From Candidatus Thorarchaeota archaeon (GTDB lineage: Archaea > Asgardarchaeota > Thorarchaeia > Thorarchaeales > Thorarchaeaceae): a stretch of DNA of 50,852 bases. Where the stretch lies: the NCBI GenBank assembly GCA_048882485.1, contig JBHLRP010000022.1:1-50852 (forward strand), written 5' to 3'. Every line of letters starts with the position of its first letter. Position 1 is the first letter of the stretch. The position numbers were made by a program, and so were the translations under genes. The notes beneath the pieces were generated by a model. That model was not told the DNA's origin. It was given only the letters and a program-made list of their open reading frames with translations, and did not search any database. Positions 44,060-44,651 of this stretch are shown here, piece after piece.

Positions 44060-44150
44060 CGATGGCTGAATCGTATAGCTTCGTATATGCTTTGTCCAAG
44101 GAGATGAGGCATAAGATAAGATGGATGAGTAACTGATTTGAAGTCATCCG

Positions 44151-44189
44151 AAAAAAAAGCAGAGAGAAATCCGCTTTAGGCGGCTTCTC
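44151..44189 (-). terminator. Hairpin plus T8 tract terminator downstream of the repeat-peptide ORF
   Basis: The + strand shows A8 (44151-44158) next to an imperfect stem GAGAA..CCGC-loop-GCGG.TTCTC, which reads as hairpin then poly-T on the - strand. Confidence 0.6.
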
Positions 44190-44225
44190 AAGTGTAGTTT
44201 CTAAATAACTCCGAAGATGGATATG

Positions 44226-44351
44226 TCACAAACCCCATGGTTCCGGAGGGGGAGTGAAGGGTTTCAAGTTCCAAGGTTCCGGAGGAGGGGTGAATGGTTT
44301 CACACCCCAAGGTTCTGGAGGAGGGGTGAATGGTTTTACATCAATAGTCAT
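44226..44351 (-). CDS. 41-aa repeat peptide MTID-VKPFTPPPEPWG-VKPFTPPPEPWN-LKPFTPPPEPWG-L (not in ORF track)
   Basis: ATG 44351 and TGA 44226 bracket three 36-bp repeats. All nucleotide differences in the 10-codon core are silent in this frame. Confidence 0.8.
   Translation of the reverse strand: MTIDVKPFTPPPEPWGVKPFTPPPEPWNLKPFTPPPEPWGL
44232..44339. repeat. Three tandem imperfect 36-bp repeats
   Basis: CCA(T/A)GGTTC(C/T)GGAGG(G/A)GG(A/G)GTGAA(G/T)GGTTT recurs at 44235, 44271 and 44307. Confidence 0.95.
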
Positions 44352-44651
44352 TTTGAATCGTTATCATGTCCCCCAAAATTGTGCAGAATTTCCTTCTACA
44401 GCTTCCAGACAATTAACTCAGGTTTGGGTGTCAAACATTAGTCAATGCGCATTCTTATACTAGGGCAAAATGTGTAGGACTTCAAATACCAAAAGCAACG
44501 ACTTTCAGAGAATTTTGGTATATTTGACCCTGTCTTACACCATTACAAAAGGAGGAGAGTCTCTGCATAGCGCAGAGCAGGCTAGCAGGAAACGATATTT
44601 TTACACTCTCCCCTAACAAAACTCAACCCCGAAAATCAAACCCCCCAACAA

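Follow-up and report, generated by a model that had tools for sequence, protein, structure and literature searches.

A genome-specific proline-rich micro-peptide gene beside a predicted Lrp-like protein in a Thorarchaeota archaeon

Results

Organization of the locus

The window analysed here is a stretch of 50,852 nucleotides (contig JBHLRP010000022.1) from a Candidatus Thorarchaeota (Asgard) archaeon. On its minus strand it harbors an open reading frame of 41 codons that encodes three identical KPFTPPPEPW units separated by two-residue linkers and followed by a two-residue tail, and downstream of it, on the same strand, the gene of a 675-aa protein, hereafter termed the partner. The features are collected in Table 1. 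In the following, G numbers denote genomes (G000 is the genome of the window), C numbers contigs and L numbers the stretches of sequence compared.

Table 1. Features of the peptide locus, the second cassette and related loci. Coordinates refer to the window unless a contig or stretch is given.
Feature	Position	Strand	Remarks
Micro-peptide gene, 41 aa	44226-44351	-	ATG at 44351, stop at 44226-44228
Unit 1	44307-44336	-	
Unit 2	44271-44300	-	
Unit 3	44235-44264	-	
Probable decayed fourth unit	44203-44228	-	Stop plus frameshift; tentative
Terminator-like hairpin plus T8	44151-44189	-	Hairpin 44164-44189, T8 44151-44158; between peptide and partner gene
Imperfect palindrome, 17 bp	44383-44399		48 nt upstream of the ATG; candidate operator (inferred)
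TATAAG	44454-44459	-	Not conserved in relatives
Conserved AT-rich box	44478-44488	-	Candidate TATA of the peptide gene
Conserved block upstream of partner gene	44078-44096	-	Candidate separate promoter (inferred); seen downstream of the peptide in G002, G005, G011, G015
Partner protein, 675 aa	42032-44059	-	N-terminal region of no recognised fold plus predicted tandem Lrp/AsnC-like modules (residues about 327-658)
Surface protein, 2606 aa	34215-42035	+	Prenyltransferase-like toroid and Ig-like repeats; overlaps the stop of the partner
Second-cassette peptide	G000 C9:58448-58492		Single unit
82-aa orphan ORF	L174:8163-8408 (G000 C9)		Always directly after the second-cassette peptide
Conserved 71-aa ORF	G000 C9:58627-58840 (L174:8628-8843)	-	Upstream of the second-cassette peptide, itself ending in Pro-Phe; also in G002, G011, G018, G105
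213-aa gene	L002:446-1087 (G005), L142:442-1083 (G002)		Weak Vps36-like Pfam hit (E 0.003); between rubrerythrin and the peptide, not in the window
165-aa HTH protein	L006:1832-2329, L007		After the stand-alone copy in G002 and G011; four homologues in G000
Peptide array spanning an assembly gap of N	L003:1501-1761 (G011)		At least four units; such repeat genes may be under-assembled

The original prediction, a free-standing gene of three repeats with only silent differences and its own terminator, is confirmed. All five variable columns among the three units are synonymous (synonymous share of possible changes 0.233, p about 7e-4), whereas each of the other five frames changes residues. The hairpin (folding z -2.06) and the T8 run recur in G002 and G011, and 36 of 53 family members have a 3′ fold with z below -2, as compared to 5 of 53 upstream. 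The TATA-like TATAAG noted upstream is present but not conserved in relatives, the AT-rich box being better conserved. The palindrome is found at the same position in seven partner-linked loci of the genus and in both locus-C copies, with only the right half present at locus B; two exact-pattern sites exist in the genome and they do not define a clear regulon. The 26 bases past the stop resemble the last unit of the stand-alone copies in G002 and G011 (23 of 2000 shuffles score as high), and a decayed fourth unit would explain the two-residue tail, although this similarity was noticed after the fact and remains tentative.

A family of short peptides ending in Pro-Trp or Pro-Phe

A pattern for the C-terminal motif plus stop gave 26 matches in 18 of 87 Thorarchaeia genomes against one for the reversed control, and 25 of the 26 are short free-standing ORFs, so that chance is excluded as the source of the motif. 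Searches of related genomes yielded multi-unit as well as single-unit homologues, 10 to 66 residues in length, most members being single-unit peptides of 10-19 residues. In 53 members the end is Trp (46) or Phe (7), always after Pro, with Glu before it in 48; the tail after the aromatic residue comprises 0 (41) or 2 (12) residues, all three stop codons are used, and 37 have a Shine-Dalgarno-like site. None of the 53 possesses a hydrophobic signal region (highest 7-residue hydropathy 2.0, median about 0.2). Between tandem units pS is 0.58 and pN 0.16 over 12 genes. Tandem arrays arose in many separate branches of the partner tree, and two genomes contain two separate tandem genes for the same 13-mer.

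A protein database search with the 41-mer returned 10 candidates, none of them significant, and a metagenome scan with the peptide alignment gave no confirmed member, both methods being weak for such short ORFs. A period-12 DNA pattern run over all genomes retrieved mostly unrelated frames, with only two Asgard loci as true members. Matches in families f5, f9 and f29 were antisense to long genes and are ascribed to chance. The genes lie below gene-caller limits and were not called in the one annotated record checked.

Pairing with the partner protein

Homologues of the partner are present in 75 of 87 Thorarchaeia genomes, and only 173 hits were obtained among 1.8 billion cluster representatives. 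Of 72 partner loci examined, 56 have a family peptide next to the gene by a strict motif and five more by a relaxed one, across most Thorarchaeia genera, whereas the background is 5 of 886 other long genes in this genome; eleven partner genes show no peptide nearby. The peptide lies upstream in most cases, downstream on the same strand in four and convergent in four, so that it need not be read in cis. The 2606-aa surface protein is convergent with the partner at many loci. The other neighbors, among them rubrerythrin, FprA, an MFS protein and endonuclease III, vary by locus, and neither a standard RiPP maturase nor, at this locus, a transporter is conserved among them.

The partner model (pLDDT 91) shows beta domains, a helical region and two modules consisting of an HTH and a RAM-type alpha/beta domain. 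The closest match of known structure is NirDL (E 1e-5; Z 10.0 to 4czc, rmsd 5.5, 262 aligned), the model also matches uncharacterised archaeal HTH/AsnC clusters, and the modules also correspond to PF0864 and PH0061. The N-terminal region of 310 residues has no clear structural match (best Z 4.8), and weak SH3/PH-like rows were not trusted. No TPR array is seen in the model and no Pfam TPR hit was obtained for 67 members. The HxYxR catalytic motif of NirDL/AhbAB (PMC4145669) is found in 0 of 67 partners, but several polar residues are conserved (His404, Arg644, Gln662, Asp507, Glu153). An HTH is predicted; however, the surface positions of the predicted recognition helix are poorly conserved and the candidate palindrome is limited to one subclade, so DNA binding is not assured. 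Prediction of a complex between the 41-mer and the partner gave a score of 0.02, which is not evidence either way. A covariation of partner residue 402 with a Trp or Phe end (p 1e-3 among about 670 columns) fails in G015 and in G000 and was discarded.

A second cassette, also present in this genome, places a single-unit peptide, the 82-aa ORF (no Pfam or Atlas hit) and an MFS gene divergent from two HTH proteins that probably belong to the same tandem-Lrp group, as inferred from size, HTH hits and the Atlas clusters. Here the peptide changes 1-6 of 14 residues between species whose next ORF changes 3-8 of 82. Related cassettes with Pro-aromatic-ended peptides divergent from related regulators occur in Hermodarchaeia and Atabeyarchaeia.

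A genome-specific unit kept at distant loci

Nine genomes contain a peptide gene at another site with no 675-aa-type partner beside it. In all nine the unit, or word, matches the partner-linked unit of the own genome better than that of any other genome (10/10 residues in eight, 9/10 in one; 1 of 72 permutations for the eight with orthologous copies), for example RPIAPPPEPF in G002 and RPYSPGPEPF in G011 at orthologous sites. The matched pairs differ at 31 silent codons and one residue, while the DNA upstream of these copies follows locus ancestry, with 73-98% identity to the orthologous copies and 53-71% to the own partner locus. A cis element has no reason to track a distant locus, whereas a diffusible, sequence-specific product does. 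Gene conversion could explain part of this match, namely in G011, G015 and G001 with only 1-2 silent differences, but not in the six cases with 4-5. G000 itself holds three cassettes with three different words (C22, C14, C9). Contigs from another study suggest yet another word in a relative, although this sequence was merged from two low-depth contigs and is tentative; one contig from a further study carries the present gene almost unchanged.

The history of the partner is discordant with that of its surroundings. In the closest relative, G005 (91-94% DNA identity over 14 kb; neighbors 90-97%, with FprA 97% and SerRS 96%), the partner is only 60% identical (44% in the N-terminal beta region) and the drop extends into the end of the adjacent surface protein, whereas the more distant G002 and G011 show 77% and 75%, respectively, as in swapped pherotype loci. 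The record JBHLLF010000010.1 (L064) is titled Hermodarchaeota, but its genome is placed in this Thorarchaeota genus and is the closest relative of the window, hence it is probably mislabelled.

Discussion

The explanation we favor, with moderate confidence, is that the gene makes a small trans-acting peptide ligand whose active part is a unit of about ten residues ending in acidic-Pro-Trp/Phe, with the aromatic end as constant anchor and the preceding residues as genome-specific word. In this view the unit is read by the adjacent tandem Lrp/AsnC-like protein and switches its activity, probably DNA binding, while extra units and extra gene copies raise the dose. The gene and its selection, the pairing, the fold of the partner (as a prediction), the word kept at distant loci and the discordant divergence of the partner follow from the sequences; expression, release of units by cleavage after the aromatic residue, binding to the partner and regulation of transcription are inferred. 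No RNA data are listed among the sequencing runs. Contrary to a simple lock and key, word and partner do not diverge in step, since G005 combines nearly the same word with a 60% identical partner, whereas G002 and G011 combine changed words with partners of 75-77% identity. On present evidence the peptide may leave the cell as a quorum or kin signal or act only inside, the lack of a signal peptide and of a transporter conserved at this locus (an MFS only at the second cassette) speaking against export.

The interpretation given in the original prediction is partly supported. A micro-protein under purifying selection with homologues and its own terminator was correctly recognized, as was the absence of a signal peptide and of an evident maturase, and a multi-unit precursor or ligand fits. 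However, the neighboring gene, mentioned only in passing as a wHTH protein, turned out to be the constant partner of the family, and with mostly single-unit members multivalency is not needed. Only acidic-Pro-aromatic is conserved and not the polyproline run, so a polyproline ligand is unlikely; the likeness to FNPQPEPP-type repeats of uncharacterised prokaryotic proteins remains a loose suggestion.

In its logic the system resembles the RRNPP peptide-receptor pairs of Bacillota and their phages (Rap-Phr, PlcR-PapR, Rgg-SHP, ComR-ComS, AimR-AimP; PMC11343458): a tiny peptide gene next to a cytoplasmic regulator-type gene, strain-specific words, several orthogonal pairs per genome and 1-4 tandem copies in one precursor, such tandem pheromone copies being functional in Rap-Phr systems (PMC11343458). 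It is not a member, as the partner is predicted to have a tandem Lrp/AsnC instead of a TPR fold and the peptide is hydrophilic without export signal; it also differs in that the host is an archaeon and stand-alone gene copies track the word of the genome. With the fused NirDL and AhbAB sirohaem decarboxylases (PMC4145669) and the Lrp/AsnC (feast-famine) regulators the partner is predicted to share two HTH plus alpha/beta barrel modules in one chain, but it differs by the additional N-terminal region and the missing HxYxR motif. Described members of this superfamily sense amino acids or tetrapyrroles and are not known to sense encoded peptides. Multi-core RiPP and pheromone precursors such as cyanobactin PatE, fungal Kex2-processed repeat proteins and yeast alpha-factor likewise contain repeated cores with short linkers kept identical at protein level; here, however, there is no leader, no dibasic or other conserved cleavage site and no known maturase, and most members have one unit. 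The arrest peptides PepNL and NanCL of E. coli (14 aa; PMC11890864) are similar in size and in position upstream of a gene, but in the present family the position is not fixed, units occur in tandem, any stop codon is used and the word is conserved in trans.

Our literature searches found no paper describing this family, no peptide pheromone and receptor pair in archaea and no Lrp-family protein that reads an encoded peptide. The logic is known while the parts are unrelated to those of described systems. A further-reaching and only tentative possibility is that Asgard archaea have a gene-encoded, strain-specific peptide signalling system between cells (quorum or kin recognition), built independently of RRNPP from signal-less Pro-aromatic peptides and Lrp-fold receptors, with several orthogonal channels per genome and swapped receptor alleles. 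An extracellular signal would show kin-specific communication in the lineage closest to eukaryotes.

Among the alternatives, a RiPP-like system survives best, albeit as an unlikely one, in which the partner is an Lrp-fold enzyme that modifies or cyclises the units and the product is a signal or antagonist read elsewhere; this would represent a new peptide-modifying chemistry on an Lrp scaffold. It is in line with NirDL as best solved match, with the initial mis-annotation of Lrp-fold decarboxylases as regulators (PMC4145669), with the conserved polar residues and with the many origins of multi-unit precursors. Although the partner remains a possible unknown enzyme, the AhbAB motif is absent from the 67 partners, no known maturase is conserved at the loci, single-unit genes of 10-15 residues leave little room for leader plus core, and an enzyme alone would not explain why distant copies keep the genome's own word. 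Less likely still, the peptide binds some other cellular protein, such as a binder of proline-rich motifs like profilin or an enzyme with an aromatic pocket, and the neighbor only controls its transcription. The proline-rich composition, the polyproline binding reported for Asgard profilins (PMC8410842) and the upstream palindrome would fit, but proline runs are absent from many members, and a conserved housekeeping target would favor neither fast, genome-specific words nor three different words in one genome. A cis-acting leader or arrest peptide like PepNL or TnaC is the least likely, for although most copies lie upstream on the same strand with a hairpin between, proline-rich ends can slow ribosomes and a small ORF directly follows in the second cassette, there are downstream and convergent copies as well as stand-alone copies facing convergent genes, the word is kept across distant loci, the partner has its own conserved upstream block, and the motif occurs internally and at 0 or 2 residues from any of the three stop codons, unlike the stop-dependent arrest of PepNL (PMC11890864).

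The tail of exactly 0 or 2 residues suggested dipeptide trimming. The genome encodes an M3 peptidase, whereas no M2 or S9-N match was obtained, the M2 search having failed to detect its control, and the idea is therefore not settled by these searches. In one genome only (G090; L262:1-639) a probable prolyl oligopeptidase, as judged by its sequence, lies divergently upstream of the peptide.
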